Positions 1-13,044 of a stretch of DNA of 64,000 nt are shown here, piece after piece (positions within the stretch are counted from its first letter, which is position 1; the number at the start of each line of letters is the position of its first letter). The stretch is taken from the sequence record NZ_CP118990.1, one strand, 5' to 3'. The translations under genes were made by a program, and so were the position numbers. This stretch comes from a plasmid. Under the pieces are notes generated by a model that had not been told where the DNA came from, did not search any database, and saw nothing but the letters and a program-made list of their open reading frames with translations.

Positions 1-459
1 GCCCAGAACGAAAAAATCCAGCAACCCCTTTATCAGGTAGGGATTCCCCAATCCATCGAACACTGCAAAAGGGGCTTGGTAAGCGGGCATCTCCCGCAAG
101 CGTCGTTTGGTCGGTCCTCCCTTGAGCTTGATCTTCACATAGCGTCCTTTGCCGTTGGGGGCAAACATCGCCGGAGATAGTTTCTCGGGAGTATGCCGAT
201 CTGCTCTGACGTAGCTGCCGACAGTCAAGCCAACGGCCATCGTGACACCGAATCTCATTGCCGAGGCATGGAAGACACCAAGTTGGTCGTTATAGAGAAG
301 GTAGTTGCTCATTTCCTGCAAGAGTTCTTCCCTGCTGGCAAGTGGGGAGCGCTGGCTCAGAGCCTCAAAAACCAAAGCATCAAGAGTTGGGGGGTAGTCA
401 GTTAATACCACCGGGGTCTTTAACGACATGACCAGGCGAAAGGGTTCAAATTCGAACAT
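1..459 (-). CDS. Partial cas-operon gene running off the window edge; candidate type IV Cas7/Csf2-like (or Cas5/Csf3-like) subunit
   Basis: Minus-strand ORF open to position 1. Its ATG (457-459) overlaps the dinG stop codon (459-461) as TGATG, i.e. translational coupling. GGAGG lies about 11 nt upstream. N-terminus MFEFEPFRLVMSLKTPVVLTD. Family assignment is inference from operon context only. Confidence 0.35.
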   Translation of the reverse strand, partial: MFEFEPFRLVMSLKTPVVLTDYPPTLDALVFEALSQRSPLASREELLQEMSNYLLYNDQLGVFHASAMRFGVTMAVGLTVGSYVRADRHTPEKLSPAMFAPNGKGRYVKIKLKGGPTKRRLREMPAYQAPFAVFDGLGNPYLIKGLLDFFVLG

Positions 460-2408
460 CAGAAGTAAACCTCCAATGGAGTTGCAGGTGATTGCTCGCC
501 GTCAGTTAACAGCCCTTTGGCCTGCCGGTACTGTTGCAGAAACCGAACGGGAATGATGTTTCGCAGGATGGCGTGTTTGGACGACAAATCGTGAGACAGT
601 GGGAAACGGGGATCGAGAATATCGACTTCAATGCAATCGTCAGGTGAACGGATCCCGCGGCCAATGGCTTGTCGCATCAACCGAATAACGGCGTTTTGAG
701 TACGCATATACTCCTGCTTGTAGAGCTGTTTACTCAGGTCAGTCTTCTTGGTCTTCTTGTAGAAACTTACCAACGCTTCGACTTCGGAAGTGCGTGGTTG
801 GCCGTAGGCAATTCGAGTGATCATCAGGCGATCGAATCCAACTGAGCCAGCGTCATCGGTGATATTGAGCCCGGTATGGCCCGCAGCGGTGATCATTACT
901 CCCCGGCCATGATGTCTGCATACCTTCTTGAACTCTTCAATCAATGATTTGAGTGGGGTGCCACGCTGGTGGACCAGCACCTGCCGATGCTCAATTTGAG
1001 CCAAAACTGCGGCCAATTTACGGCTCTCTTCATGTGAAGCTGTCAGCACAACCACCCGTCCGCATCGGTTGGTGATCTGATGTGCGACTGCTTGCAACCA
1101 TTTTTCAGAAAGGGCAGGGGCATTCCCCTCAGAGGACGGTCTTGAGTAGATAGCCGGGAACGAGGGGCCCGCCAGAGTCAGGGTCATGCTCCCATATTTT
1201 TTCGGGGAGAAAAGGGCAATGGCGCCGAGCATGGTGTCATCAATACCAAGTTCCATTCGCAACGAAGTGGTACCATTCACTGGCTCAGGCGTGATACTCA
1301 GTGTGCCGGAGGTGAGGAGAACAGACTCAAAAGCTGAGGTCGCGTATTTCCCGAAGAACCGAACAAACCACGGGGAGAGTGAGACGATGGCCGGTTCCCG
1401 GCGTATCAGTGAAACGCCGATCCCCATGGACGAGGTTTGCATCATCAGGAGCTGCTGCTGCAAAGATGTTGAGACATCCTTATCCAGGTTATTCAACCGG
1501 CAAATCTTCTCGATCTTTCCAATGGTGGCCCGCGCCAGTTCCGCCAGCTCGGTATCCCAGGCATATTGCTGCATCCCCAGCCGCTCTTGGATTGTCTTAA
1601 TTGAATTAGCAAGAGGGGCTAATTGCCGAGCTGATAGTTGCTCGCCCAACTGGGAGGCGACACGAACAAGATTCAGGCGCCGCTGAGTCCATTCTTGCAA
1701 CCGATTCACCAGGGCATCAGCTTCATCAACAATCAGCACTGTCGGCCGTGACTTATCGGCCAAAAGCGCATTATTTCGCAGCATGTCTACTGCGATCATG
1801 GCATGAGTTGTGACCACGATGTCGCATTTAGATTCAGCCTGTTGCTGTTCGTCAAATGCCTCATTTTCACACTCAGCCGTCAGGCAAATTTGAGAGGCCA
1901 ACAAGTCGCAGGGGAGTCCGCCAAACTCATCCTCAAATTCTGCAATCGTCCCTGACCAGTCACGCAAAGTAGCCACTTCGCGCTCCTCTAGGGCTGACAG
2001 AGAGCGGTTGGTGAGGGCAATATTGATCCGCTTTGGCGATACGAAATTGACCCGTCCGAGAAGACGGCCGATAGACAACGGTCTATGTCCATAATGACGG
2101 GCGACTTTGGTCAGCAGCACACTGTCTTTTTCGAGAAGTTGTTGCATCAGTGCGTGGCTGTGTGTTGCGACGATAACCCGAGGGCGACGTGGGTCGCAGA
2201 GTGCAAACTGCATGGCTGGCAAGAGATAGCCCAGCGACTTTCCGAGGCCGGTGTCAGCGTGAAGAAGCGATATTTTCCCGGTGTCAGCCAGCACTTGCTC
2301 AATCATTAGCGCATATTGGGTCTGCTCATCCCGAGCGATGAGGCCGCCAGCGGCCATCAGCTCTCCGAACTTGGCTGTGTGGATCCCGTCCTCTGGCAAG
2401 GGGCTCAT
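459..2408 (-). CDS. csf4: CRISPR-associated DinG/Csf4 helicase (SF2, Rad3/XPD-like) of a type IV-A system
   Basis: 649 aa. Walker A-like LHADTGLGKS, DEAD-like VLIVDEAD, helicase motifs V/VI near C-terminus (ITAAGHTG..., GRGIRSPDD). Overlaps cas6 by 4 bp. CRISPR array nearby. Confidence 0.85.
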   Translation of the reverse strand: MSPLPEDGIHTAKFGELMAAGGLIARDEQTQYALMIEQVLADTGKISLLHADTGLGKSLGYLLPAMQFALCDPRRPRVIVATHSHALMQQLLEKDSVLLTKVARHYGHRPLSIGRLLGRVNFVSPKRINIALTNRSLSALEEREVATLRDWSGTIAEFEDEFGGLPCDLLASQICLTAECENEAFDEQQQAESKCDIVVTTHAMIAVDMLRNNALLADKSRPTVLIVDEADALVNRLQEWTQRRLNLVRVASQLGEQLSARQLAPLANSIKTIQERLGMQQYAWDTELAELARATIGKIEKICRLNNLDKDVSTSLQQQLLMMQTSSMGIGVSLIRREPAIVSLSPWFVRFFGKYATSAFESVLLTSGTLSITPEPVNGTTSLRMELGIDDTMLGAIALFSPKKYGSMTLTLAGPSFPAIYSRPSSEGNAPALSEKWLQAVAHQITNRCGRVVVLTASHEESRKLAAVLAQIEHRQVLVHQRGTPLKSLIEEFKKVCRHHGRGVMITAAGHTGLNITDDAGSVGFDRLMITRIAYGQPRTSEVEALVSFYKKTKKTDLSKQLYKQEYMRTQNAVIRLMRQAIGRGIRSPDDCIEVDILDPRFPLSHDLSSKHAILRNIIPVRFLQQYRQAKGLLTDGEQSPATPLEVYF

Positions 2409-2977
2409 AACACCTCCAGGTTCGACAACTGGCCGTAGCCAAATACCCGCTTACGGCCAATGCCATAAACAACAGCCTGCTCGGCCAGCGCAACATCCTT
2501 GATCTCAGCAACGACACTGACCGGGTTGCACTGGAGGGTGAAGCTCTGTTTTTTCTTGAGGTAGCGCTCCAGGTAGGGGCTGTTGGCTGAGTGGCTCTGG
2601 AGCGAGAGTCCTGCCCCTTCGCACTGCCTGGCTAGAACATCAGGCAAGATGGCCATCGGCAGATTCATCGACCGTTTTTTGGTGGTGCCTGGGATCGGAT
2701 GCTTGATTGGGAAGCAGAAGTTGAGGTTGAACATGACTGCATCTGCCACGTTCAGTTCAAGTTGTACGGCTTGTTCGCCAGCTAGGCCAAGTTGCGTTGC
2801 CGATCGCAAGTAGATAACGGTTGTGTTGGGCTCATGAGGGTGAGCAATCCGCCGCCAGCTATAGGGGACTTTACAGCGCAATGTCTCCTGTACCAAATAA
2901 TCAAGACGCTGGTGGACCAGATACGGAAGAGACGGGTCAGTTTCACGCAGTTTGAGGGTGTTTTCATAGTAAATCAT
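2405..2977 (-). CDS. cas6: Cas6-family crRNA endoribonuclease (Csf5/Cas6e-like)
   Basis: 190 aa. C-terminal glycine-rich loop GIGRKRVFGYG matches the Cas6 GhGxxxxxGhG signature. 4-bp overlaps with both neighbours (operon). Confidence 0.7.
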   Translation of the reverse strand: MIYYENTLKLRETDPSLPYLVHQRLDYLVQETLRCKVPYSWRRIAHPHEPNTTVIYLRSATQLGLAGEQAVQLELNVADAVMFNLNFCFPIKHPIPGTTKKRSMNLPMAILPDVLARQCEGAGLSLQSHSANSPYLERYLKKKQSFTLQCNPVSVVAEIKDVALAEQAVVYGIGRKRVFGYGQLSNLEVL

Positions 2978-3810
2978 TGGAGCTTGTCCGCGATGTGAAT
3001 CAGCTTGAGGCGCTGGTGGGGGTCCGCCGGTAAAGTGCGAAATATCGTGCCGAACGATGGTTTTTTGCTGATCTGTTCACTGGCCTGCTGGGGGGTAATG
3101 CGTCCGTTCGAGAGGCCAACGACTAACTTATTGAAGGCGTTGCGTTCCTGACTTGTTAGTGTGTTGAGCCCCCCTGATAGCCGCATGGCCGCATCCAGAT
3201 TAACCGTGCATTCGACTCGGGTAACTGAATCCATACCGGCGTCACTACAGCAGTAGAGCGCCTGCGGTGACAGAGATATGGTCAACCCTCGCATAAGCGC
3301 CGCGGTTTTACGTCCGAAAGATTCGATGTATAGCAGAGGGAATTTTGCATTCTCTGCGATCCATGGCAGGTGACCACCAACGGTAATCTTCACCACATCG
3401 ACGTGCTCTAAAAATGATGCAGGGAACTTGTCATACACCCCTGGTGGGGCTAGGAGCGTTGAACGCTGAGGCTTACCTGGGACATCTGCAATTTCGTGCA
3501 CCCAACCGACACCACTCATCATTCCAAAGCGCTGGCCCACCTTCTTGTCGCTTTTCCCGGCAGTTCGCTCATTACCCATGATGTTGGGGTCGGTCACAAA
3601 CATGGCCTGGCAAGGAGCACAGTGGTTGAACGGCGTTTTATAGCTATCCAGACCTTGATAACCCACACGGTCAAACGAGCTTGCAGGGCGCTTGCAGCAA
3701 GAACATGCCGCACCAGTCTTTACAGCTTCTCCCAAGGCTGGAGCCAAAATATGGGTGAGGTTGGCATAAAGAAGATCAATTGGATGTTGCACGTCACCTC
3801 CGAGAAACAT
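2974..3810 (-). CDS. csf1: Type IV effector-complex subunit, candidate Csf1 (Cas8-like large subunit with zinc finger)
   Basis: 278 aa. N-terminal CxCC...CxxC (CSCCKRP...HCAPCQ) as expected for the Csf1 zinc finger. First gene of the minus-strand operon. Identity is inference; could alternatively be Cas5/Csf3. Confidence 0.45.
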   Translation of the reverse strand: MFLGGDVQHPIDLLYANLTHILAPALGEAVKTGAACSCCKRPASSFDRVGYQGLDSYKTPFNHCAPCQAMFVTDPNIMGNERTAGKSDKKVGQRFGMMSGVGWVHEIADVPGKPQRSTLLAPPGVYDKFPASFLEHVDVVKITVGGHLPWIAENAKFPLLYIESFGRKTAALMRGLTISLSPQALYCCSDAGMDSVTRVECTVNLDAAMRLSGGLNTLTSQERNAFNKLVVGLSNGRITPQQASEQISKKPSFGTIFRTLPADPHQRLKLIHIADKLQ

Positions 3811-3930
3811 TCTGAAACAGTTTCACATAAGATAATAGATTTCTTTTTTTTGTAAAGAGGCAGGTCCTTGATAATCGACCGTTTTTAGTGGCCTGGTAGA
3901 AACGGGTGCTGTATAAGCTAAAACCTCGGT

Positions 3931-4055
3931 ATGCCGCCCTTTGGCGGGGGTTAGCGGTTTGAGCCAGCGCAAAAACAAGCCAGAGCAGAGCCATGCTGGA
4001 GTGCCTCCCAGTGGCGGGGGTTAACAGATGAATGGCAACCTCTGGGGTTGAACGG
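3931..4055 (+). repeat. Degenerate CRISPR-repeat-like motifs (orphan mini-array relic) in the intergenic/promoter region upstream of csf1
   Basis: ccgccctttggcgggggttagcgg (3931-3957), cctcccagtggcgggggttaacag (4001-4027) and a weaker ctctggggttgaacgg (4038-4055). Compare the array consensus ccccgcaggcgggggttaacgg at 6955-7650. Same polarity as the main array. Confidence 0.5.
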
Positions 4056-4097
4056 AGGTAAAGCTCCGGGGGCCATAGCCCCTATGTTGGGAGCGCC

Positions 4098-4817
4098 ATG
4101 TTCAGTGACATTTTACCAACGGAACAAAGTTCTGGTGTTATTTCAGGGGGAAGTATGAAGGGTAATATAATTTCATGGAAAGATGAAAAAGGCTTCGGCT
4201 TTATAAAAAATGATGAGAATGGCGAACATATATTTTTTCATATATCGAGCGTTATAAAAGGGACGAGGCAGCCTATTGTTGGTGATGCAGTTACATTTGA
4301 TGTAGGGGTTGATTCCAGCAACCGAAAAAAAGCAAAAGATATTTTTATTGAAGGGGTGTCATTTACCAATATCCCAAGGCGAGTATTTACGGAAAAGGTT
4401 AAGCGCGACCGTTTCGATTATTATTGTTACGTCGCGATAGTGTTATCAGTGGCAATAACACTCGCTGTGTATATTAAAATGGGGCAGCCTCGACTGGCAT
4501 TATTTCCCGCCGCCGTTGCTATAATGCTGTTTTTGTATATCTCCGTCCGTACTAAAAAACCTGCAAATGACATATTCTCATGCGGGAAATGCTCATCAGT
4601 GGTTAGACATGACGCAAGAACCATTCGGGCATGGAATAAGGGTGCGTGTAAATTATATTGCAGAACCTGCAATCAGAACTGGCATCGTGAAAAGCCACAA
4701 AGGGATAGCACTAAAAAATATAATCGCCCTCAGAAGTCTGGATGTCTAGGGGTATTATTATTTATAACATTCGTGCCGGTATTTTTAATTTCAAGCATCA
4801 TCACCTTACTGGTGTAG
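4098..4817 (+). CDS. Cold-shock-domain (CspA-like) protein fused to a C-terminal membrane / Cys-rich zinc-ribbon region
   Basis: N-terminus KGNIISWKDEKGFGFIK...HIFFHISSV carries the CSD RNP1/RNP2-like motifs. Two hydrophobic helices (YYCYVAIVLSVAITLAVYI, ALFPAAVAIMLFLYI). CGKC...CRTC motif. Locally AT-rich. Confidence 0.6.
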   Translation: MFSDILPTEQSSGVISGGSMKGNIISWKDEKGFGFIKNDENGEHIFFHISSVIKGTRQPIVGDAVTFDVGVDSSNRKKAKDIFIEGVSFTNIPRRVFTEKVKRDRFDYYCYVAIVLSVAITLAVYIKMGQPRLALFPAAVAIMLFLYISVRTKKPANDIFSCGKCSSVVRHDARTIRAWNKGACKLYCRTCNQNWHREKPQRDSTKKYNRPQKSGCLGVLLFITFVPVFLISSIITLLV

Positions 4818-4969
4818 AAAGAAATGTTGAAGCCTTGTTGCCTGGACTATTAACTGAATGAGCCTCATCATAATCATGGGTGAGGCTTTTTTAATGGCCC
4901 GATAAAGGGCGAAAAGTGTCGCTCTCAAATTGCCACGCACTGACCGCGTTTCCCAAGTCGATGACACTG

Positions 4970-5105
4970 AATAGTGTACAAACTTTATTATGCAAGTGAC
5001 TGATCTGTAGTGTCCGTTGTGTACAAACTTTACTGTCCGAGTCACCGCTACGCCGTGTTTGCTGCGTACAAACTTCATTGTCACTGTACTGCTTGCGCAG
5101 CCTAA
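4970..5105 (+). repeat. Three direct iteron-like repeats with exact 45-bp phasing (core GTACAAACTT)
   Basis: Cores at 4976, 5021 and 5066. Units: tagtGTACAAACTTtatt, ttgtGTACAAACTTtact, ctgcGTACAAACTTcatt. Confidence 0.6.
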
Positions 5106-5288
5106 CGGCGCCTGCGGCCACAGTACAGACAACCCCGCATTGCGTACTTCTCCATGCCCTCCTTCACACACAGAGGCTCAAGCGTGTCTCTGTGTGTCTC
5201 TACTTATTAAAATGATTCTTTGAAAAAGTAGTGTTTATAAAATAGGATAGTTGGCAGGAAAGTCCTTCATTTTTCACGGAGAGAACGC

Positions 5289-5819
5289 ATGAGAGAGGTG
5301 CACTTCATTAGCCAGGTCGAGGCCGAAAAACTGGCGCCGGTTGCCGGTGCGGCGATGATCTCGATCACCGACCCGGACAAACCGGAGGCGGCCCTGGGAG
5401 ATTGGCAACTCTTGTATCGGGACAGCTTTTACGATGGTGGCTACAGTGAGGACACCATCCGTACCATGAAAGGGTCTTTTCGGATGAGCTACGCATCCTA
5501 CATTGACTCCCATCAGGCGAAGAACCTATCCAACTACATCGATGAGCTGGTGCAGAGCGGCATCAGCCAGATCTTTGTTCACTGCTACTACGGGGAATCC
5601 CGAAGTGGCGCGATTGCTTTGTATCTGTGCAACAAACATGGATTCACCTCGAACAAGCCCATCACCAAGCCTAACAGGACGGTCTACGATCTCCTCTGCT
5701 CCCCTTTGAAATATGAAGCACTGATACAGAGTTACGAAACACAAGATGCTGCGCCTACCGAGAGTATCTACACCAAGATATGGGATTTATTGCTCGTGGC
5801 TATCGGTGTTAGGAGGTAA
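5289..5819 (+). CDS. Cys-based protein phosphatase-like protein (CX5R P-loop)
   Basis: 176 aa. VHCYYGESRSGA matches the HCxxGxxR(S/T) signature of the PTP/DUSP superfamily. Confidence 0.45.
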   Translation: MREVHFISQVEAEKLAPVAGAAMISITDPDKPEAALGDWQLLYRDSFYDGGYSEDTIRTMKGSFRMSYASYIDSHQAKNLSNYIDELVQSGISQIFVHCYYGESRSGAIALYLCNKHGFTSNKPITKPNRTVYDLLCSPLKYEALIQSYETQDAAPTESIYTKIWDLLLVAIGVRR

Positions 5820-5821
5820 CT

Positions 5822-6826
5822 TTGCACCAACGGAACAACCGCGACACCACTGAACTTTCACACGCGAAAGTCATTGTCTTGCCAGAACAAACCTCAGGTG
5901 GAGGCCTCCCGCAAGTCACCGGGGGGCTCAGAAGCGCACAAGATAATCCGGCAGTTGCATACCTGATCAGCCTTGGCTCCAGGCGCAGTCGGCAAACCAT
6001 GGGCTCATTTCTCAGCATTGTTGCTCGGATGATCGGGTACCAAAACCTGCGTGATTGCGCGTGGGAGTCGATGCGGCGGCATCATGTCCAAGCTGTGATC
6101 CAAATGCTCAGTGACTCTGACCGAGCGCCAGCTACGATCAATACCTACCTGGCAGCGCTGAAAGGAGTTGCCCTGGAAGCGTGGACAATGAAGCTGATTG
6201 ATACCGACAGTTACCAGCATATCAAGCAGGTGCGTTCGGTGAGAGGCTCTCGTTTACCCAACGGGCGGGCCCTCGAAAAGCACGAGGTCAGAGCCCTTTA
6301 TTTCACATGTGAAAACGATCGGAGCTCCAAAGGGCTGCGTGACGCAGCCATCCTTGCTGTTTTAGTCGGGTGCGGACTTCGGCGCTCAGAGGTTGTCGCC
6401 CTCGATATGGAATGTGTCATCACCAGGGATCAGGCACTTCGTGTGCTCGGTAAGGGCAATAAAGAACGCATCGCCTATGTGCCTGACGGGGCATGGCAGC
6501 GGCTTATGCGGTGGGTGGAGGAGGTTCGTGGTGATCAGCCGGGATCGCTGTTTCAGCGGATCAGGCGGTTTGATGATGTCACCGCCGACAGAATGACTGA
6601 CCAGGCTATCTATCACATTCTTGAAACGAGAAGGATTGAGGCGGGGCTGGAAAAATTCGCTCCTCATGATCTCCGCAGAACCTTTGCATCGGCCATGCTG
6701 GATAATGGCGAGGACATCATCACGGTCAAGGATGCGATGGGCCATGCCAGTGTCACGACCACGCAGAAGTATGATCGTCGGGGAGATGAGCGATTGAAAC
6801 AGGCCAGTCGGCGACTCGATTTTTGA
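5822..6826 (+). CDS. Tyrosine site-specific recombinase (phage integrase family, XerC/XerD-like)
   Basis: C-terminal catalytic motifs: VGCGLRRSEVVALD, GKGNKERIAYVP, HDLRRTFAS, GHASVTTTQKY. The true start may be an internal Met (e.g. MGSFLSIV). Confidence 0.8.
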   Translation: MHQRNNRDTTELSHAKVIVLPEQTSGGGLPQVTGGLRSAQDNPAVAYLISLGSRRSRQTMGSFLSIVARMIGYQNLRDCAWESMRRHHVQAVIQMLSDSDRAPATINTYLAALKGVALEAWTMKLIDTDSYQHIKQVRSVRGSRLPNGRALEKHEVRALYFTCENDRSSKGLRDAAILAVLVGCGLRRSEVVALDMECVITRDQALRVLGKGNKERIAYVPDGAWQRLMRWVEEVRGDQPGSLFQRIRRFDDVTADRMTDQAIYHILETRRIEAGLEKFAPHDLRRTFASAMLDNGEDIITVKDAMGHASVTTTQKYDRRGDERLKQASRRLDF

Positions 6827-6829
6827 GTC

Positions 6830-6954
6830 GGAAGACCAATGTTAATCAGTTGCGCACTCAGAATTTAAGAGGTAAATTTCAGCCACCAATCCTCAAGTGT
6901 GCGAACATCGCTGAACGTGACCTAATCTTGATGGTAATTGTTGACTTGGTAAGT
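6830..6954 (+). promoter_or_regulatory. Putative CRISPR leader
   Basis: About 125-bp AT-richer segment directly 5' of the first repeat. Polarity inferred from the repeat orientation (stem then TTAACGG 3' handle) and from the degenerate terminal repeat at the other end. Confidence 0.4.
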
Positions 6955-7650
6955 ATCGCCCCCCCGCAGGTGGGGGTTAACGGGCGTGTAAAGCGTCCAA
7001 CGTGACTTACAGAAAATCGCCCCCCCGCAGGTGGGGGTTAACGGAGTGGATGCATTTGCTGACTTCCACCGATGAATCGTCCCCCGTGCCTGGGGGTTAA
7101 CGGTACTCGGCCTGGCACAACATGGACCTCACCCGATTTCTCCCCCGCAGCTGGGGGTTAACGCCGCGAGGGGAGCTGTTGCTATAGCGGGAATGAATCC
7201 CCCACCGCAGGCGGGGGTTAACGGCGTCAGCACATCACACAGCTATTGAGCACCAGATCGATCCCCCGCAGGCGGGGGTTAACGGTTTTCGATGATGTCG
7301 GTGGCGTTTGCCATCATATCGCCCCCCGCAGGCGGGGGTTAACGGACGCTGATAACGCATATCGACGACGGATTTGAATCACCCCCCCGCAGGCGGGGGT
7401 TAACGGCCCGCGGGATAGAGAAGTGGTGCCATCAGCGCATCTCTCCCCCGAGCCTGGGGGTTAACGGTGCCCTTTTTGTGCACAAACAAAAAAATCAAAA
7501 TCCATCCCCCTGTTACGGGGGTTAACGAAGCGGGACGTCGTGGTGCTGTGCTGCGGCTGCATCTCCCCCCAGCAGGCGGGGGTTAACGTTAGCTTCACAC
7601 CAGGCCTTGATAGCATCGCCGATCTATCCCTCGCGACTGGGGGTTATCGG
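6955..7650 (+). CRISPR. CRISPR array: 12 repeats of 29 bp (consensus ATCGCCCCCCGCAGGCGGGGGTTAACGG) and 11 spacers of 31-33 bp
   Basis: Period 61 bp. Repeat starts near 6955, 7016, 7076, 7137, 7198, 7259, 7320, 7381, 7442, 7503, 7564, 7622. Palindromic stem CCCCCGC/GCGGGGG. Many repeats carry substitutions that keep stem pairing. Terminal repeat is degenerate (GGGGGTTATCGG). Confidence 0.9.
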
Positions 7651-7657
7651 GAGGAAG

Positions 7658-7834
7658 CATGGCACAACAGAACGTTTTCCTTCTTCGATTGAGGGTTATG
7701 CGCGAAATGGCCGCCGACACCGACTCGGTGATCTCTGCCGTCACGGCCGAGCTGCCAGTCGGTTTCCCTGAGCACATTAGCAAGGCCATTTTTTCTGGGT
7801 TGTCGGCTCAAGCAGCCAAGCTTCTGAGAGGGTG
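7658..7834 (+). CDS. Small ORF (58 aa) whose start lies inside the terminal CRISPR repeat
   Basis: ATG at 7658 is preceded by GGGAGG formed from the last repeat. Below the 60-aa cutoff of the ORF track. Stop is 4 bp before the next ORF. Speculative. Confidence 0.3.
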
Positions 7835-7838
7835 AGAA

Positions 7839-8336
7839 ATGGCTGAAATGAGCAATTTTGGGGAAAGCTTCAAGCTTTATTCCGACGGGCAACGAGATCC
7901 TGTCAAGCGCACAGGCCTGAACGTCCAGTACACAGAGACTCGGGCCAACTACCCGACAATCAGCATCGAGATCGCTCCCATCCGGGCGGCAGGAGCAAAA
8001 GCAGACTGGGAGCAGAAGATCACAGTACAACTGACCAGGGCAGAGCTGACCGCGTTCTGCGGTGTGATGTTTGGGCTCAGGAAGGATGCCACAGGGTCAT
8101 ACCATGGTGACGCCAACAACAAGAGCTTCGCGACATACTGCAACGGCAAGTCCGGCGTCGCCATCCTTCTCATGGCACGAGGGAACCAGTACCAGCACCT
8201 CATTACACCCGATGACCGAATGGAGCTAGCTGTATTCGCGATAAGGAGGTTGGCTGAGGCATGGAAGGTCACCCCTTCTGATGCGATTGCGATGCTCCGT
8301 CAAGGGGCGTGGATGAGCAAGAATCAGGTAAATTAG
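7839..8336 (+). CDS. Hypothetical protein (165 aa)
   Basis: RBS-like GAGGGTGAG upstream. Followed by an intrinsic terminator. Confidence 0.45.
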   Translation: MAEMSNFGESFKLYSDGQRDPVKRTGLNVQYTETRANYPTISIEIAPIRAAGAKADWEQKITVQLTRAELTAFCGVMFGLRKDATGSYHGDANNKSFATYCNGKSGVAILLMARGNQYQHLITPDDRMELAVFAIRRLAEAWKVTPSDAIAMLRQGAWMSKNQVN

Positions 8337-8352
8337 AATGGGTTAGATAATG

Positions 8353-8379
8353 AAAATCCCGCTTGAGCGGGCTTTTCGA
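8353..8379 (+). terminator. Rho-independent terminator
   Basis: aaaatCCCGCTTGAGCGGGcttttcg: GC hairpin followed by T-run. Confidence 0.55.
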
Positions 8380-8589
8380 AATTTGGGGTGGCCCTGCATG
8401 ACAGGGCCAGTACGAACCTAGTGTCATCACCAGTAAGGTAGCTGGGAGAGGACGGAGCCTAGAAGTAGAGATCCCGCTAGGTCCTCTTATTTTCAATTGG
8501 CTACTCTTGTCTGCTCTTGATTTGCACTTGTTTAATACTGATTCCGCCGCGGTTACTCTCCTCCTGCACCTGACCAAACGGAGAGAAAT

Positions 8590-9136
8590 TATGCGCTATC
8601 ACTCACCTCTGCACGACCCGCTGACTCAAGATGAACTCAATGCACTTAGAGCCTCACTCTCTGCAAAAGAGTTCCAGCATGACTTATTCCGAGCATTCCT
8701 GTTCGTATGCGAGACAGGGTTGAGTTGGGAGGATGTTTACCTCCTAAAGTGGACGCAAATCGATAGGGAAAACCACCTGCTGGTTCACGACTATGAACGA
8801 ATCAATGGACATCAAACCCAACGCCTTTCGCAGTTCGCATTGAATGTTTTGCCCGAGCAGAGCAGCAGCAAGGTCTTTCCTGATCTACATTTCGAGCTCA
8901 TTCAAGACCGATATGGGGAATGGTGCTCGTCTGACCTATGGGTCTGGGGGAAGAGATCAAATATCAAGCGCGGGTTTTGTCTTGAGGCTGCTGGGGCCAC
9001 CTTCGTTACCAAAATGACAGCTCAACACGTTGATGAGCATGAGCTCGCAAAAATGCTGAACATTACCGAGCTCGACTTACGTTGGATTTACCCAATACGT
9101 TCATTTAACCCGATTGACCTAATGTTCCTCTCCTAA
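8590..9136 (+). CDS. Hypothetical protein with weak, degenerate tyrosine-recombinase-like catalytic-domain features
   Basis: ORF track gives 8507-9136. Likely start MRYHSPL at 8590 (GGAGAGAAATT upstream). TGLSWEDVYLLKWTQID resembles integrase box I, but canonical HxxR/Y are not evident. Confidence 0.3.
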
Positions 9137-9173
9137 ACGTTGTCCTGAGCGAACAAGGAAACCTGATCGCATC

Positions 9174-10286
9174 ATGCCGCTAAAGTGCTTGCACCACCAC
9201 ACCACCATCTTCGCCTTTGATTTCGATGCAGCAGGTTGGGAGAAACTGAAAGCCAGCAACCGAGCAGATGCCGGCCTCATAATGACATGCTGCCAGGCCC
9301 GAGCGGTCCCGAAGGTATCCAAGCTCGGCACCCGGTTCTTTGCACATCACAAGAGTGGCGAATGTACCAGCACACCGGAGACAGCGGAGCACCTATGGGC
9401 CAAGACCATCGTCTGTCAGGCTGCCCGAGCGGCAGGGTGGACAGCCGATACGGAGGTAAGGGGCCAAACTCCGGCCGGTGAAGACTGGGTGGCCGATGTG
9501 CTATCCACCAAAGGCAGCGCTAAGGTCGCCATCGAGATCCAGTGGTCACGCCAAGGCACCGAAGAGACCCAGCGCCGTCAGCGTCGCTATGCCGACTCTG
9601 GAGTGCGAGCATTATGGCTACTGCGTCACCCTGACCTGCTGGTGGAGCGGGGCACGCCATCGTTCTTGTTGGATGTCCGAGCGAGTGAGTCAGCAGCCTT
9701 CGTGCGACTCCCATCAAGCCAATTCGATCCGCGCTGGGTCACCAACCGCAACAAGAGCGAAGCGGAATATTGGCAGCAAACCATCGCGCTGGAGACGTTC
9801 GTCCGTGGAGCCCTGACCGGCTCATTAAAGTTCGCCCCGGCGATTGACCAGCCCATACCGGTGACCATCAGTGCCACAAAGATCCGGTGCTGGCGCTGTA
9901 AGCGTGAGACCTGGACGGTACAAGGGCTTACCCTGGAGGTCAGTACGCGGTTCGCGGGTCACCCAGACCTGCACACGAGCCTTGAAGAGCTCGATAGCGG
10001 GGAGGAGACTGCACCGTGGCTGGCTAACTTGTTCCCGGCCGCACTGTTGAAGCAACACGGGATAGGCGTGATCAAGCCGCGCTTTAGCCGCACAGCAGGA
10101 TGCAGCTATCTATCGAACGGCTGTACACACTGCGACGCCCTCCAGGGTCGCCACTTTGACCACGACGATTACCAGGAAGCGACCGACGTCTGCCAGTATG
10201 AAGTCACCCTGAGTAGTGAGTTGCTAGAGCAACTGGCTACCGTGGGCAACGATATTGCCTATCGCTGGTGGTTTGCAGAGAGGTAA
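9174..10286 (+). CDS. Hypothetical protein with PD-(D/E)xK-like core and C-terminal Cys-rich zinc ribbon
   Basis: 370 aa. EDWVADVL...VAIEIQW, then CWRCKRETW...CSYLSNGCTHCD. Confidence 0.35.
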   Translation: MPLKCLHHHTTIFAFDFDAAGWEKLKASNRADAGLIMTCCQARAVPKVSKLGTRFFAHHKSGECTSTPETAEHLWAKTIVCQAARAAGWTADTEVRGQTPAGEDWVADVLSTKGSAKVAIEIQWSRQGTEETQRRQRRYADSGVRALWLLRHPDLLVERGTPSFLLDVRASESAAFVRLPSSQFDPRWVTNRNKSEAEYWQQTIALETFVRGALTGSLKFAPAIDQPIPVTISATKIRCWRCKRETWTVQGLTLEVSTRFAGHPDLHTSLEELDSGEETAPWLANLFPAALLKQHGIGVIKPRFSRTAGCSYLSNGCTHCDALQGRHFDHDDYQEATDVCQYEVTLSSELLEQLATVGNDIAYRWWFAER

Positions 10287-10306
10287 ACGTGGCCGGTTTC
10301 TTCATA

Positions 10307-10592
10307 AATTAGACCATCATGCAGCGAGGGGTAGAAAGCCCCACACCAACCCCCGAGGCCTACCTTTTACCCCGGCGCCGCTCCACTGAGCGCGTCTCTT
10401 CTTTCTCTCTCTTTTTCTCTCTTTCTCAATCTAATCTCCCGCGAGCGCGGGCCTAGCACAGGGGCTGAGCTCGTTCGGGGGTAAGGCTCACCGGGTCCAA
10501 CATTGTCACGATAAAACATCGGGCTCACCCTCCCCCGACGCCGCGCAGCGGCGGCGATCATCTCTTATACCCCTCGTTGCATGATGGTCTAA
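10307..10592. repeat. MITE-like element: 24-bp terminal inverted repeats flanking 238 bp that include a CT-rich low-complexity tract
   Basis: ATTAGACCATCATGCAGCGAGGGG (10307-10330) versus CCCCTCGTTGCATGATGGTCTAAT (10569-10592), one mismatch. CT tract at about 10391-10440. Confidence 0.6.
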
Positions 10593-10648
10593 TATTGCCT
10601 ATTCTCTAACCAATATTCTATCGGTACAAACCCCAGGTAAGGACCTCC

Positions 10649-11530
10649 ATGCAGACTAACTTCATCTCCGAACAGTACACAGCCATCACCCGTGACCTCG
10701 ATCGCCTCGCAACTCTCATCCGGCGCCTGCCCCATCGCGACGCCCGTGTCGCGGCCATCACACCCACGGCCAAAGGCTCCGAAAGCGAGCCTACAACCAA
10801 CATTGTTGTCCTGGAACAAACCGGGAGCGATGCCCTGGCGCTCGCCGCCGACTGCTACCGGGATCTCCACATCATCCCCCAGCTCTCCCAGAAGTCGGCC
10901 CGCCGAACCGTCGGCGTATTGTGGCTCTCCCCTTCCCAGAGCGGCGCGGCCGCCACTGACGAGCTCCGGCAGCTGGTGGACCGCATCAACACCGCCAAGG
11001 CCGGTATCGAGACGTTCATCGTCTCCAACTACGGCACCCGCCAGGAGCGTTTTGAGGCACTCCGGGCCGAATGCCCCGGCGTGATGACCCTGCACCTGTA
11101 CCGGCAGATCCGGTGCTATGCCGAGGGGGACGTGGATTCTATCCGGTTCACCTGGCAGCAGAAGGACTCGCTCAAACGGCCCGACAAAGATGAGCTGATG
11201 CGCCGGATCCGGGTTGAACTGGAGAAAGCAGGGCCAGATTTTCGGCCGCAGCTGGAGGAGCTGCTCGACAAGATTTCCGGCACCCCCGAGGCAGCGCTGC
11301 GCGAGCGCCGGGAGGTAAAGGTGCAGCCGGTGGCAAACATCATGGCCGCGGGGGCACTGAGAACGGTGACGGCACCGATGCCTCTGATCCTGCTCCAGGA
11401 TGCTGATGCCAAGATCAAGATGCTCAAGTCGTTTGACCCGAAGGCAGGGCGCAAAACGCGGAACGACCGGGTGGAATCCCGTGTTATCGGGACATTTTGC
11501 GGGGTCGCCATCGAGGCATTTCCGTTGTGA
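10649..11530 (+). CDS. tus: Tus-like DNA replication terminus-site-binding protein homologue
   Basis: 293 aa. C-terminal half aligns by eye with E. coli Tus: IRFTWQQK...ELEKAG vs LRFGWANK...QLEKSL, and REVKVQPVANI...APMPLILL vs RPVKVQPIARV...CPTPLIAL. High-GC gene. Confidence 0.55.
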   Translation: MQTNFISEQYTAITRDLDRLATLIRRLPHRDARVAAITPTAKGSESEPTTNIVVLEQTGSDALALAADCYRDLHIIPQLSQKSARRTVGVLWLSPSQSGAAATDELRQLVDRINTAKAGIETFIVSNYGTRQERFEALRAECPGVMTLHLYRQIRCYAEGDVDSIRFTWQQKDSLKRPDKDELMRRIRVELEKAGPDFRPQLEELLDKISGTPEAALRERREVKVQPVANIMAAGALRTVTAPMPLILLQDADAKIKMLKSFDPKAGRKTRNDRVESRVIGTFCGVAIEAFPL

Positions 11531-11668
11531 TGACATGACGGGATAAGCAAGGTGGGCCGTTGAAAACGGCCATATCCGGGGTTTGGGGAGCAATGGAACC
11601 AAAAACCAACGTAAGCTCTGAATCCCACCGTAAAGGGGCTTTCCGATCTCCAGCTCACCCGCCAGGCA

Positions 11669-12067
11669 TTACTCTCTGATCAGTGCCTCGATGATCGGGC
11701 AGATCGTTCCGCCGTCTCCCGCATCACATTGCTGCACCAGTTCGCCTAACAGTTGCTGCATGACGACCAAGTCGGCCATCTTCTGCTCGATCAACGCGAG
11801 CTTGCGTGCAGCCCGTGCTCGCGTTTCGGCACAGGCGCACGACTCATCCAGCGTCAGCAGTCCACCGACTTCCGAGAGCGTGAAACCCAGCGCCTGAGCC
11901 CGCTTGATGAAACGCAGTCGCTTCACCATGTCCACCGGATAGCGCCGATGGCCACCCAAGGGTTTGGCTGGTTCATCCAGCAGCCCGCGTCGCTGGTAGT
12001 AGCGGATCGTCTCGACGTTCACCCCGGCGGCGTCTGCCAGCTTGCCAATGGTCAGCTCTGTGGCCAT
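11669..12067 (-). CDS. merR: MerR-family metal-responsive transcriptional regulator, divergent from merT
   Basis: [30 protein letters not shown]-terminal Cys cluster (DESCACAE, QQCDAGDGGTICP). Confidence 0.75.
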   Translation of the reverse strand: MATELTIGKLADAAGVNVETIRYYQRRGLLDEPAKPLGGHRRYPVDMVKRLRFIKRAQALGFTLSEVGGLLTLDESCACAETRARAARKLALIEQKMADLVVMQQLLGELVQQCDAGDGGTICPIIEALIRE

Positions 12068-12070
12068 CAC

Positions 12071-12135
12071 TTTCTCCTTGATTCCGTACTTTGGTACGGA
12101 GTTTAGAATAGCACCTAGGCAATCAGGCTCAGGAG
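12071..12135. promoter_or_regulatory. mer operator/promoter dyad
   Basis: TCCGTACtttgGTACGGA between divergent merR and merT. Confidence 0.6.
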
Positions 12136-12492
12136 ATGGGAATGGGGATGCAACTCACCGGGAAAGGCTCGCTGGTCGCGAGTTCGCTGACCGCCATCGG
12201 TGCGTCGGTGTGCTGTGTCGGGCCACTGGTGCTGTTGGCACTCGGTGTCGGCGGTACGTGGGTGGGCGCTCTGACCATGATGGAGCCACTACGCCCCCTC
12301 TTCATCGGGTTGACTCTACTGTTCCTGGGATTGGCATTCCGCAAGCTCTACCTGGTGCCACAGGTTTGTACGCCAGGTACACCCTGCGCCGATCCGCGCA
12401 CGCTCGTGCGACAGCGACTCGTGTTCTGGATCGTCAGCGTGCTGCTGCTCGGCCTATTGGCCGTGCCGTGGCTCGCCCCGCTGTTCTACTGA
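12136..12492 (+). CDS. merT: Mercuric ion transport protein MerT
   Basis: TM1 Cys pair (SVCCVGPLVLL) and cytoplasmic-loop Cys pair (CTPGTPC). Paralogous to the copy at 20088-20438. Confidence 0.85.
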   Translation: MGMGMQLTGKGSLVASSLTAIGASVCCVGPLVLLALGVGGTWVGALTMMEPLRPLFIGLTLLFLGLAFRKLYLVPQVCTPGTPCADPRTLVRQRLVFWIVSVLLLGLLAVPWLAPLFY

Positions 12493-12504
12493 AGGAGATT
12501 AACC

Positions 12505-12780
12505 ATGCGCAAACTGCTGATCGCCGTGCTTTTCGCCTTGCCCTTCGTGGCGCTGGCGGCTCCCCCGAAAACCGTCACGCTCGACGTGCAGAACATGACG
12601 TGCGGACTCTGTCCGATCACGGTCAAGAAGTCGCTGGAGAAGGTGTCCGGCGTGAGTGACGTCCAGGTCAATTTCGACCAGAAGACGGCGACCGTCACCT
12701 ACGATCCCGATAAGGCCCAGCCCGAGGCACTGACTGAGGCGACCGCGAACGCGGGATACCCCTCCACAGTGCAGAAGTGA
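12505..12780 (+). CDS. merP: Periplasmic mercury-binding protein MerP
   Basis: Signal peptide plus HMA motif MTCGLCP. Confidence 0.9.
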   Translation: MRKLLIAVLFALPFVALAAPPKTVTLDVQNMTCGLCPITVKKSLEKVSGVSDVQVNFDQKTATVTYDPDKAQPEALTEATANAGYPSTVQK

Positions 12781-12787
12781 GGTCACG

Positions 12788-13000
12788 ATGAGCGCCATTG
12801 TCCTTGAGTCCGTGCTGACTTGCCCGCGCTGCGGCTTCGCCAAGCCGGAAACCATGCCCACGGACGCCTGCCAGTTCTATTACGAGTGCAGCAACTGCAA
12901 GGCGCTGCTGCGCCCCAACCCAGGGGATTGCTGCGTTTTCTGTTCGTTCGGCTCGGTGAAGTGCCCGCCGATCCAGCAGCAGCTTGGGTGTTGCTCATAG
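12788..13000 (+). CDS. Small Cys-rich GDCCVxC-motif protein (mer-locus associated)
   Basis: 70 aa with about 10 Cys, including GDCCVFC. Confidence 0.5.
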   Translation: MSAIVLESVLTCPRCGFAKPETMPTDACQFYYECSNCKALLRPNPGDCCVFCSFGSVKCPPIQQQLGCCS

Positions 13001-13006
13001 CGTTTA

Positions 13007-13044
13007 GGGGGATCACAGGTCGTCGTCTGGATTACGCAGTGGCC
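13007..13044 (+). repeat. Candidate Tn3-family terminal inverted repeat
   Basis: GGGGGATCACAGGTCGTCGTCTGGATTACGCAGTGGCC. Starts with G-run and overlaps the tnpA 3' end, as is typical. No matching inverted partner found in the window. Confidence 0.4.

Follow-up and report, generated by a model that had tools for sequence, protein, structure and literature searches.

Analysis of a 64,000-nucleotide stretch of plasmid DNA (sequence record NZ_CP118990.1; hereafter, the window) revealed a gene encoding a Xer-like tyrosine recombinase. This gene is positioned between the cas operon and the array of a type IV-A3 clustered regularly interspaced short palindromic repeat (CRISPR)-Cas system and is read toward the array. 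Taken as a whole, the evidence makes it probable that the gene belongs to a plasmid backbone operon with a recombination site of its own, that resolution of plasmid dimers is its likeliest function, and that the CRISPR parts were placed around the operon by plasmid mosaicism. The original prediction for this locus had instead proposed either that the array and the recombinase gene form a mobilizable cassette or that the recombinase belongs to an integrative element inserted between the cas genes and the array.

Identification of a Xer-like recombinase gene in a plasmid backbone operon

The open reading frame (ORF) at positions 5822 to 6826 (plus strand) starts with TTG and encodes 334 amino acids (aa). 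The deduced protein matched the Pfam family Phage_integrase (3.4e-32) and, weakly, a SAM-like N-domain; residues 1 to 52, the most variable part of the protein, matched nothing. The closest solved relative was XerD (2.8e-22). Alignment with XerD revealed the catalytic set R187 (in GLRRSE), the lysine of GKGNKER, H282 and R285 (in HDLRR), H308, and Y317. The fold and the R-K-H-R-H/W-Y set of the tyrosine recombinase superfamily are thus both present, and the gene call, made earlier from GKGNKER, HDLRR, and a conserved Tyr, is real, with these motifs at the catalytic positions of XerD. The accompanying label "XerD-like" holds for the closest solved relative but not for orthology, as the protein scored below the NCBIfam equivalog cut-offs for XerD (136 bits versus 330) and XerC (148 bits versus 335), and the XerS equivalog cut-off also lies far above its score. 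These profile scores classify the protein as Xer-like and not as a XerC or XerD orthologue. An integron integrase was rejected on the basis of the IntI-specific profiles, for which the scores remained under the cut-offs (TIGR02249, 71 bits versus 265; PRK15417, 37 bits versus 435). An integrase of the lambda type was rejected as well, because the domain searches detected only SAM-like and catalytic domains and no arm-binding N-domain, and no att-site pair was found in the 64 kb. The ratio of nonsynonymous to synonymous substitution rates was 0.04 to 0.15 against six homologues, including the comparison between two array-bearing lineages; the recombinase gene is under purifying selection.

The recombinase ORF is preceded, after a gap of 2 nucleotides (nt), by an ORF for a 176-aa protein (5289 to 5819, plus strand). 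This protein has a Cys-X5-Arg phosphatase loop, HCYYGESRS (HCxxGxxRS), and a weak match to Pfam DSPc (2e-4); some sources name its homologues "dual specificity phosphatase." Inspection of pAsa4, IncA, IncC, and Vibrio plasmids showed the 176-aa gene 5' of the recombinase gene. An obligate phosphatase-recombinase pair was ruled out, because distant 176-aa homologues occur on other conjugative or mobile elements with no recombinase nearby and most chromosomal recombinase homologues have no 176-aa gene at the locus. In one related contig (L010; related loci are designated by L numbers where they have to be told apart), the 176-aa gene is broken and the recombinase gene is intact.

Comparison with related plasmids revealed that the same two genes, followed by hipBA, are present in pAsa4, pRA1, CP124842, and an IncA plasmid from Klebsiella. 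In the CRISPR-Cas-free plasmids pAsa4 and pRA1, genes of 120, 241, and 180 aa lie on the left of the operon and orf165 lies on the right, as in the window, and these shared outer neighbors have 68 to 91% aa identity. The backbone gene orf165 (7839 to 8336, plus strand), which follows hipBA in array-less relatives, is 68 to 71% identical at the aa level to the 164-aa genes of pAsa4 and pRA1, and homology of its region to the relatives was also seen in DNA. Across 77 plasmid records, the operon itself has 81 to 99% identity. With array-less plasmids, homology spans positions 5198 to 6826; in a DNA search, the match stopped exactly at the recombinase stop codon in 74 of the 77 closest records and continued into the array in the other three. 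Further along, positions 47.3 to 64 kb have 99 to 99.7% identity to conjugative plasmids of the pAsa4 family, and no DNA relatives of positions 1 to 5197 were found in PLSDB. Because the operon is the most conserved part of the locus and is present in CRISPR-free relatives, it is not an inserted element, contrary to the second original proposal; the CRISPR parts are the newcomers. This synteny identifies the 176-aa gene and the recombinase gene as a conserved backbone operon of pAsa4/IncA/IncC-type plasmids.

At the protein level, recombinase homologues were found in 1,811 of 72,556 PLSDB plasmids (about 2.5%), almost all of them without CRISPR. Carriers include the IncC plasmid pIMP-PH114, an IncFIB Escherichia coli plasmid, and an IncFIB megaplasmid of Salmonella Infantis. 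A genome scan added 58 recombinase loci, mostly in Xenorhabdus and Proteus chromosomes; in P. mirabilis, the recombinase gene is a single gene flanked by those for asparaginase and AMP nucleosidase. In the complete chromosome of Xenorhabdus sp. TCT-1, the recombinase locus lies at about 49.7% of the record length; if the origin marks the start of the record, this position could be close to the terminus. No report on the function of this recombinase was found in the literature searched, and it is not discussed in the papers on A/C plasmids and pAsa4 that were consulted.

A 32-bp element upstream of the operon is a candidate recombination site

Upstream of the operon, at positions 5200 to 5231 (plus strand), lies a 32-bp element, CTACTTATTAAAA TGATTC TTTGAAAAAGTAG, which consists of 13-bp inverted arms around a 6-bp center. 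It occurs once in the 64 kb (0 copies expected), and neither half-site recurs elsewhere in the window. The element was present once, upstream of the recombinase gene and in the same orientation, in 74 of 75 loci with the recombinase and in none of seven fetched loci without it. Recombinase gene and element are also kept as a unit in chromosomes (11 Proteus and about 30 Xenorhabdus species representatives; for example, L057, positions 5798 to 6888, and L025, positions 5834 to 6975, within the set L020 to L077). Across 67 distinct contexts, the mean pairwise identity was 0.99 for the left arm and 0.95 for the right arm, values that are partly circular because the search pattern tolerated no more than 2 to 3 arm mismatches. 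The corresponding values were 0.50 for the 6-nt center, which occurred in 19 variants, and 0.34 and 0.49 for the left and right flanks. The presence/absence pattern across loci is free of this circularity. The central hexamers tend to be typical of a genus, with TGATCC in all Proteus loci. Inverted 13-bp arms with a variable 6-bp center beside a recombinase gene correspond to the layout of a tyrosine recombinase core site, and we infer that the element serves the recombinase as its own core site. The literature searched contained none of the four site-arm sequences.

The 5' side of the element was analyzed for further repeats. Three copies of GTACAAACTTYAYTG start at 4976, 5021, and 5066 (4976 to 5082, plus strand), that is, with the 45-nt spacing originally described; three matches were found versus 0.01 expected, with none elsewhere in the 64 kb. 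In plasmids of the pAsa4 type and at several chromosomal loci of Xenorhabdus, one copy is located about 57 nt 5' of the 32-bp element, and degenerate versions occur at other loci. The window lineage has three copies, and IncA and IncC plasmids have a different palindrome at this position. From this distribution, the iterons belong to the recombinase module, probably as an accessory or regulatory site. The hairpin anticipated near 5165 to 5198 was found at 5166 to 5197 (plus strand; −20.2 kcal/mol, z = −5.2). It adjoins the 32-bp element, which lies directly 3' of it at the point where homology to array-less plasmids starts, and it is present only in cas-bearing relatives. The suggestion that the upstream repeats serve as recombinase sites is therefore retained for the iterons, which are linked to the module, but not for the lineage-specific hairpin, and the 32-bp element is the better candidate for the core. 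Another candidate, a 25-nt palindrome (CTTAATCATGTG-G-CACATGATTAAG) found once per locus after the recombinase gene in array-less relatives, was rejected as an essential recombinase site: it is absent from the whole window, where the recombinase is still under purifying selection. A relic of this palindrome in the CRISPR leader was rejected too, since the likeness did not exceed that of shuffled sequences (p = 0.12 to 0.43).

A sigma-70-like promoter for the operon, TTGAAA-17-TAGGAT (5220 to 5248, plus strand), was predicted by consensus match only; the right arm of the 32-bp element contains its −35 hexamer. The recombinase would bind the element as a dimer and use it as the core site for recombination, and through the promoter overlap it might repress its own operon. 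Downstream, a gene for a Tus-like replication terminus-binding protein (10649 to 11530, plus strand; Pfam Ter, 8.6e-41) was identified. Both the window and IncC plasmids (for example, pIMP-PH114) have such a gene 1.7 to 4 kb 3' of the recombinase gene; judged by its family, it marks the terminus region of the plasmid. Its proximity fits a dimer-resolution function sited near the replication terminus. Given one site per replicon and the nearby Tus-like gene, plasmid dimer resolution would be the most likely job of the recombinase, a role for which the geometry of the element and its phylogenetic footprint argue.

Several points weigh against this interpretation, in addition to the partial circularity of the arm identities. 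The recombinase of Vibrio plasmid L080 (59% identity) has no detectable 32-bp element. Given the promoter overlap, the element could be only an operator. The window is part of the plasmid, and a second site elsewhere on it is possible. The Proteus and Xenorhabdus chromosomes already have XerCD and show no obvious need for a second dimer-resolution system.

The flanks of the operon are reassorted among related plasmids

The recombinase stop codon ends at 6826 and the first CRISPR repeat starts at 6955, which leaves a gap of 128 nt. The recombinase gene does read toward the array, as stated in the original prediction; the distance of 4 bp given there depends only on the chosen start of the leader. 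The leader is placed here at 6827 to 6954 (plus strand), since in array-bearing relatives the sequence is conserved from the recombinase stop codon onward. Leader and array are located in the intergenic spacer that separates the recombinase gene from hipB. In L010, hipB and its operators are kept after the array, which indicates that the array was placed in this spacer; in the window, a further deletion joins the array trailer to the hipA tail and orf165. On the other side of the operon, the cas operon and a gene for a cold-shock-domain (CSD) protein fill a slot that in pAsa4 is taken by two other genes (276 and 213 aa).

To compare the flanks, six contigs (L008 to L013) were inspected; the exact DinG of the window was indexed in 87 blocks of the assembly collection. 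The combination of cas operon and array was found in the window and in L008 to L011. The array alone is present in the A. caviae plasmids pWP8-S18-CRE-01_1 and pGSH8M-1-1 (L001/L002, positions 10630 to 11760), in which the recombinase gene is followed by the same leader and by a longer array (17 repeats in L001), and the plasmid NZ_AP022282 (AP022282) has the same array spacers. Neither pWP8-S18-CRE-01_1 and pGSH8M-1-1 nor AP022282 appeared among the Aeromonas dinG tblastn matches. By sequence comparison, the arrays of these sister plasmids are orphan type IV-A3 arrays, yet with unique spacers at the leader end. The reverse combination was found in L013 (positions 1 to 1113, reverse strand), in which the cas operon, the CSD gene, and the recombinase module recur without an array; here, the recombinase gene is followed by the 25-nt palindrome and then by an insert of about 950 bp with two small genes. 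Neither cas operon nor array is present in pAsa4 and pRA1.

The operon does not share its history with the array. DinG of L010 is identical to that of the window and the leader is 94% identical, but the recombinase genes differ by a synonymous divergence (dS) of 0.28, which indicates that the recombinase gene was not co-inherited with the array. Single-nucleotide polymorphisms (SNPs) in the operon form a block-wise mosaic between lineages, and homologous recombination within the operon explains the shuffling of the flanks. In the resulting model, a IV-A3 system would have been split around the operon in this Aeromonas lineage. The cas operon and the CSD gene would have replaced the two left genes, and leader and array would have been placed in the right intergenic region between the recombinase gene and hipB, with later deletion of hipBA. 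Homologous recombination in the operon would then reassort the flanks between cocirculating plasmids and give rise to orphan arrays and array-less cas operons. The CRISPR adjacency would be incidental to the chemistry of the recombinase.

Features of the CRISPR-Cas system of type IV-A3

The array (6955 to 7650, plus strand) comprises 12 repeats of 29 nt and 11 spacers of 30 to 32 nt. The C5/G5 stem and the GGGGGTTAACG tail of the repeats are kept, the hairpin loop varies (GCAGGT, GTGCCT, GCAGCT, GAGCCT, TGTTAC, and others), and the last repeat ends in TTATCGG. In L001 and L011, the spacers at the leader end are unique and the distal spacers are common. Spacer 6 (7286 to 7316, within positions 7257 to 7316) has a match of 29 of 31 nt (L015, positions 273 to 306) in the pilin gene traA of Aeromonas plasmids of the pAeme3 type, and the protospacer in traA is flanked by 5'-AAG. 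Polar spacer turnover and a spacer match with the expected protospacer-adjacent motif are thus both present, as in functional arrays. The targeted pAeme3-type plasmids carry their own type IV-A3 system (62% identical), and the match looks like plasmid-against-plasmid targeting. The palindromes of the hipB operators (TAACCCC-N4-5-GGGGTTA; four per promoter) are similar to the core of the CRISPR repeat, CCCCC-N6-GGGGGTTAAC, and are located in the intergenic region that also took the array (L003, positions 9730 to 9850; L004, positions 9820 to 9930; L010, reverse strand, about 860 to 960 nt after the recombinase stop codon). The likeness may be a coincidence or may reflect a source of microhomology for the insertion.

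The cas operon is encoded on the minus strand. The first gene is csf1 for the cas8-like large subunit (2974 to 3810; PADLOC Csf1_2_IVA3, 2.2e-65), followed by a Cas6e-like cas6 of IV-A3 type (2405 to 2977; Cas6_0_IVA3, 1.5e-23) and by dinG/csf4, the type IV-A helicase gene (459 to 2408; Csf4_0_IVA, 3.9e-154; Pfam DEAD and Helicase_C_2). The N-terminal part of cas5/csf3 (1 to 459; typeIV_Cas5, 3.4e-47) forms an open frame to the window edge. Most of Cas5 and the whole of Cas7 are encoded beyond the window and were assessed on L008, which has an identical DinG and encodes a full Cas5 (232 aa) and a Cas7 (343 aa; Csf2_1_IVA3, 2.1e-103) after dinG. With Csf1, Cas6, DinG, Cas5, Cas7, and an array, and with no cas1 or cas2 seen beside the cas operon in the window or the related contigs, the system has the composition of type IV-A3. 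The layout is not the canonical one. In a Klebsiella IV-A3 plasmid and in Aeromonas pAeme3, the order csf1-cas6-dinG-cas5-cas7 is followed by the array, whereas in L008 to L013 cas7 is followed only by two degenerate repeats and a terminator.

Degenerate repeats were found on both sides of the cas operon. One pair (family D3; 3930 to 3958 and 4000 to 4028, plus strand, with a spacer of about 41 nt) is located upstream of and divergent from csf1 and is conserved in all six related contigs; its spacer had no self-target of at least 14/16 in positions 1 to 12000 of the window. The second pair lies directly after the cas7 stop codon and is followed by a hairpin terminator (L008, positions 9745 to 9843; L006, positions 15689 to 15782). 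The pairs, with repeats about 70 nt apart from start to start, bracket the cas operon and could act as regulatory mini-arrays; the one after cas7 also occurs in the distant system of pAeme3. The window and all six contigs (L008 to L013) have, between cas operon and recombinase module, the gene for the 239-aa CSD protein (4098 to 4817, plus strand; Pfam CSD, 2.5e-10; PADLOC CSD_V, 7e-8, a weak match). The protein has predicted transmembrane segments and Cys-rich motifs, matches the retron Se72 effector weakly, and may be a defense effector. Its gene is followed by an intrinsic terminator (4859 to 4892, plus strand; hairpin and U-run, −16.7 kcal/mol, z = −3.0). An Rfam scan of positions 3600 to 8000 gave no match, and the searches made found no paper on Aeromonas type IV-A systems.

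Just past the Tus-like gene, positions 11669 to 16006 contain a mercury-resistance-like cluster and a gene for a 997-aa transposase; the mer-like genes (merR, merT, and merP) were named by eye from ORF translations. At a comparable position, pAsa4 has an annotated transposase of the Tn3-family element TnAs3.

Alternative explanations for the position of the recombinase gene

The two original proposals, a segment of CSD, 176-aa, and recombinase genes that split a contiguous cas-array locus or an excisable cassette of array and recombinase gene, have some features of the locus on their side. In other IV-A3 loci, cas genes and array are contiguous, and the degenerate repeats at 3930 to 4028 together with the array repeats form direct repeats that flank positions 4029 to 6954. 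These repeats are not marks of an insertion into an array, however, because the leader lies on their inner side, within the supposed insert. As the canonical array follows cas7 and not csf1, an empty site that joins csf1 to the leader is not expected, and none of the six related contigs showed an empty-site variant. No att-like direct repeats were found at any boundary around 4098 to 6826; a 23-nt repeat pair at 4105 and 5816 (83% identity; exact over a 13-nt core) was rejected because it lies within two ORF starts and is near chance expectation. With only one 32-bp site in the 64 kb, there is no site pair with which to excise anything. Together with the synteny of the operon in CRISPR-free plasmids and the divergence of the recombinase gene independently of the cas genes and the leader, these results largely refute both proposals, which we now regard as very improbable. 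A related idea, in which the recombinase captured cargo by integration of circular DNA at the 32-bp site or beside the gene, so that the flanks are hot spots loosely resembling an integron, is improbable as well. Unrelated DNA adjoins the outer edge of the left arm across lineages (flank identity of 0.34 versus 0.99 for the arm), different cargo starts immediately after the recombinase stop codon, the L013 insert begins directly after the post-gene palindrome, and the central hexamer TGATGC is common to cas-bearing and cas-less plasmids. Yet no second site or half-site bounds any cargo block, and the iteron found left of the core at loci of the pAsa4 type and of Xenorhabdus indicates that the module extends past the arm. 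Moreover, the array lies on the 3' side, about 1.7 kb from the 32-bp site, and the homologous recombination evident from the mosaic SNPs is enough for the shuffling.

A functional coupling without mobility, in which the array is transcribed by read-through from the operon promoter and the supply of CRISPR RNA follows operon regulation, is somewhat less remote but still unlikely as the explanation of the arrangement. Array and operon have the same orientation, and no terminator-like site was found between the recombinase stop codon and the first repeat, which makes read-through transcription of the array possible. The 3' end of the recombinase gene and the leader had an unremarkable folding energy (z = −0.9), no promoter match of 9/12 was found in the leader, and the 25-nt post-gene palindrome of array-less relatives is missing here. 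On the other hand, the part of the leader nearest to the repeats resembles the stand-alone IV-A3 leader of pAeme3, with which it has the 12-mer AACATCGCTGAA in common, weak promoter-like hexamers can be read in the leader, and insertion into an intergenic spacer explains the position more simply. This coupling is compatible with a backbone operon surrounded by CRISPR parts through mosaicism and does not exclude it; in that setting, read-through from the recombinase gene may contribute to the synthesis of precursor CRISPR RNA. A further conjecture, and a long shot, is that recombinase and 32-bp site form an undescribed docking system through which replicons with matching hexamers fuse and exchange flanking cargo. 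It is just as speculative that such a system is common to IncA/IncC/pAsa4 plasmids, the Salmonella Infantis IncFIB megaplasmid, and Proteus and Xenorhabdus chromosomes.

Comparison with known systems and significance

A two-domain tyrosine recombinase of the Xer type, encoded beside one site per replicon with inverted arms and a short center, is likewise found in XerS/difSL, XerH/difH, Cre/loxP of P1, ResD/rfsF of F, and TnpI/IRS of Tn4430. The Tn4430 site, which contains accessory direct repeats, is likewise found directly upstream of its recombinase gene. The 13-6-13 geometry and the sequence of the site described here match none of the XerS, XerH, Cre, ResD, and TnpI systems. Unlike the known single-recombinase Xer and plasmid resolution modules, the present predicted module has a phosphatase-like gene in front of the recombinase gene, and homologues of the recombinase also occur as single genes in Proteus and Xenorhabdus chromosomes. 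The genes xerS and difSL form a single adjacent module, and large plasmids usually encode a recombinase of their own adjacent to its site (PMC5357621).

The CRISPR-Cas system resembles that of the Klebsiella IncHI1B/IncFIB plasmids (e.g., p1530) in its gene order, csf1-cas6-dinG-cas5-cas7 with no cas1/cas2, in its 29-nt I-E-like repeats ending in GGGGGTTAWCGG, in the 5'-AAG protospacer flank, and in a spacer against a conjugation gene of a rival plasmid. Spacer targeting with a 5'-AAG flank agrees with published IV-A3 biology (PMC7038947, 10.1101/2023.06.23.546257). It differs from the Klebsiella systems in that no array follows cas7 and the only full array is located upstream of csf1, about 3.1 kb away, with the CSD gene and the recombinase operon in between. 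Degenerate repeat pairs flank the cas operon, and DinG shares only about 35% identity with its Klebsiella counterparts. As in the integron platform, a tyrosine recombinase gene is positioned beside an array of short repeats that separate variable units. Unlike in integrons, the repeats are CRISPR repeats processed by Cas6 and not attC sites, the recombinase gene reads toward the array whereas intI is transcribed away from it, and the predicted site lies on the side of the gene opposite the array.

Mobilization of the CRISPR array by the neighboring recombinase is therefore unsupported, and the adjacency is explained by ordinary plasmid mosaicism. The analysis provides a concrete 32-bp site candidate for a recombinase with homologues in about 2.5% of plasmids sequenced, among them IncC and IncA plasmids and a large IncFIB plasmid of Salmonella Infantis. 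If the module does serve stability through dimer resolution, it would be relevant to plasmid persistence and curing. The unusual IV-A3 layout, with an array apart from the cas genes, orphan arrays, and array-less operons, bears on the sharing of arrays and effectors between coresident plasmids.

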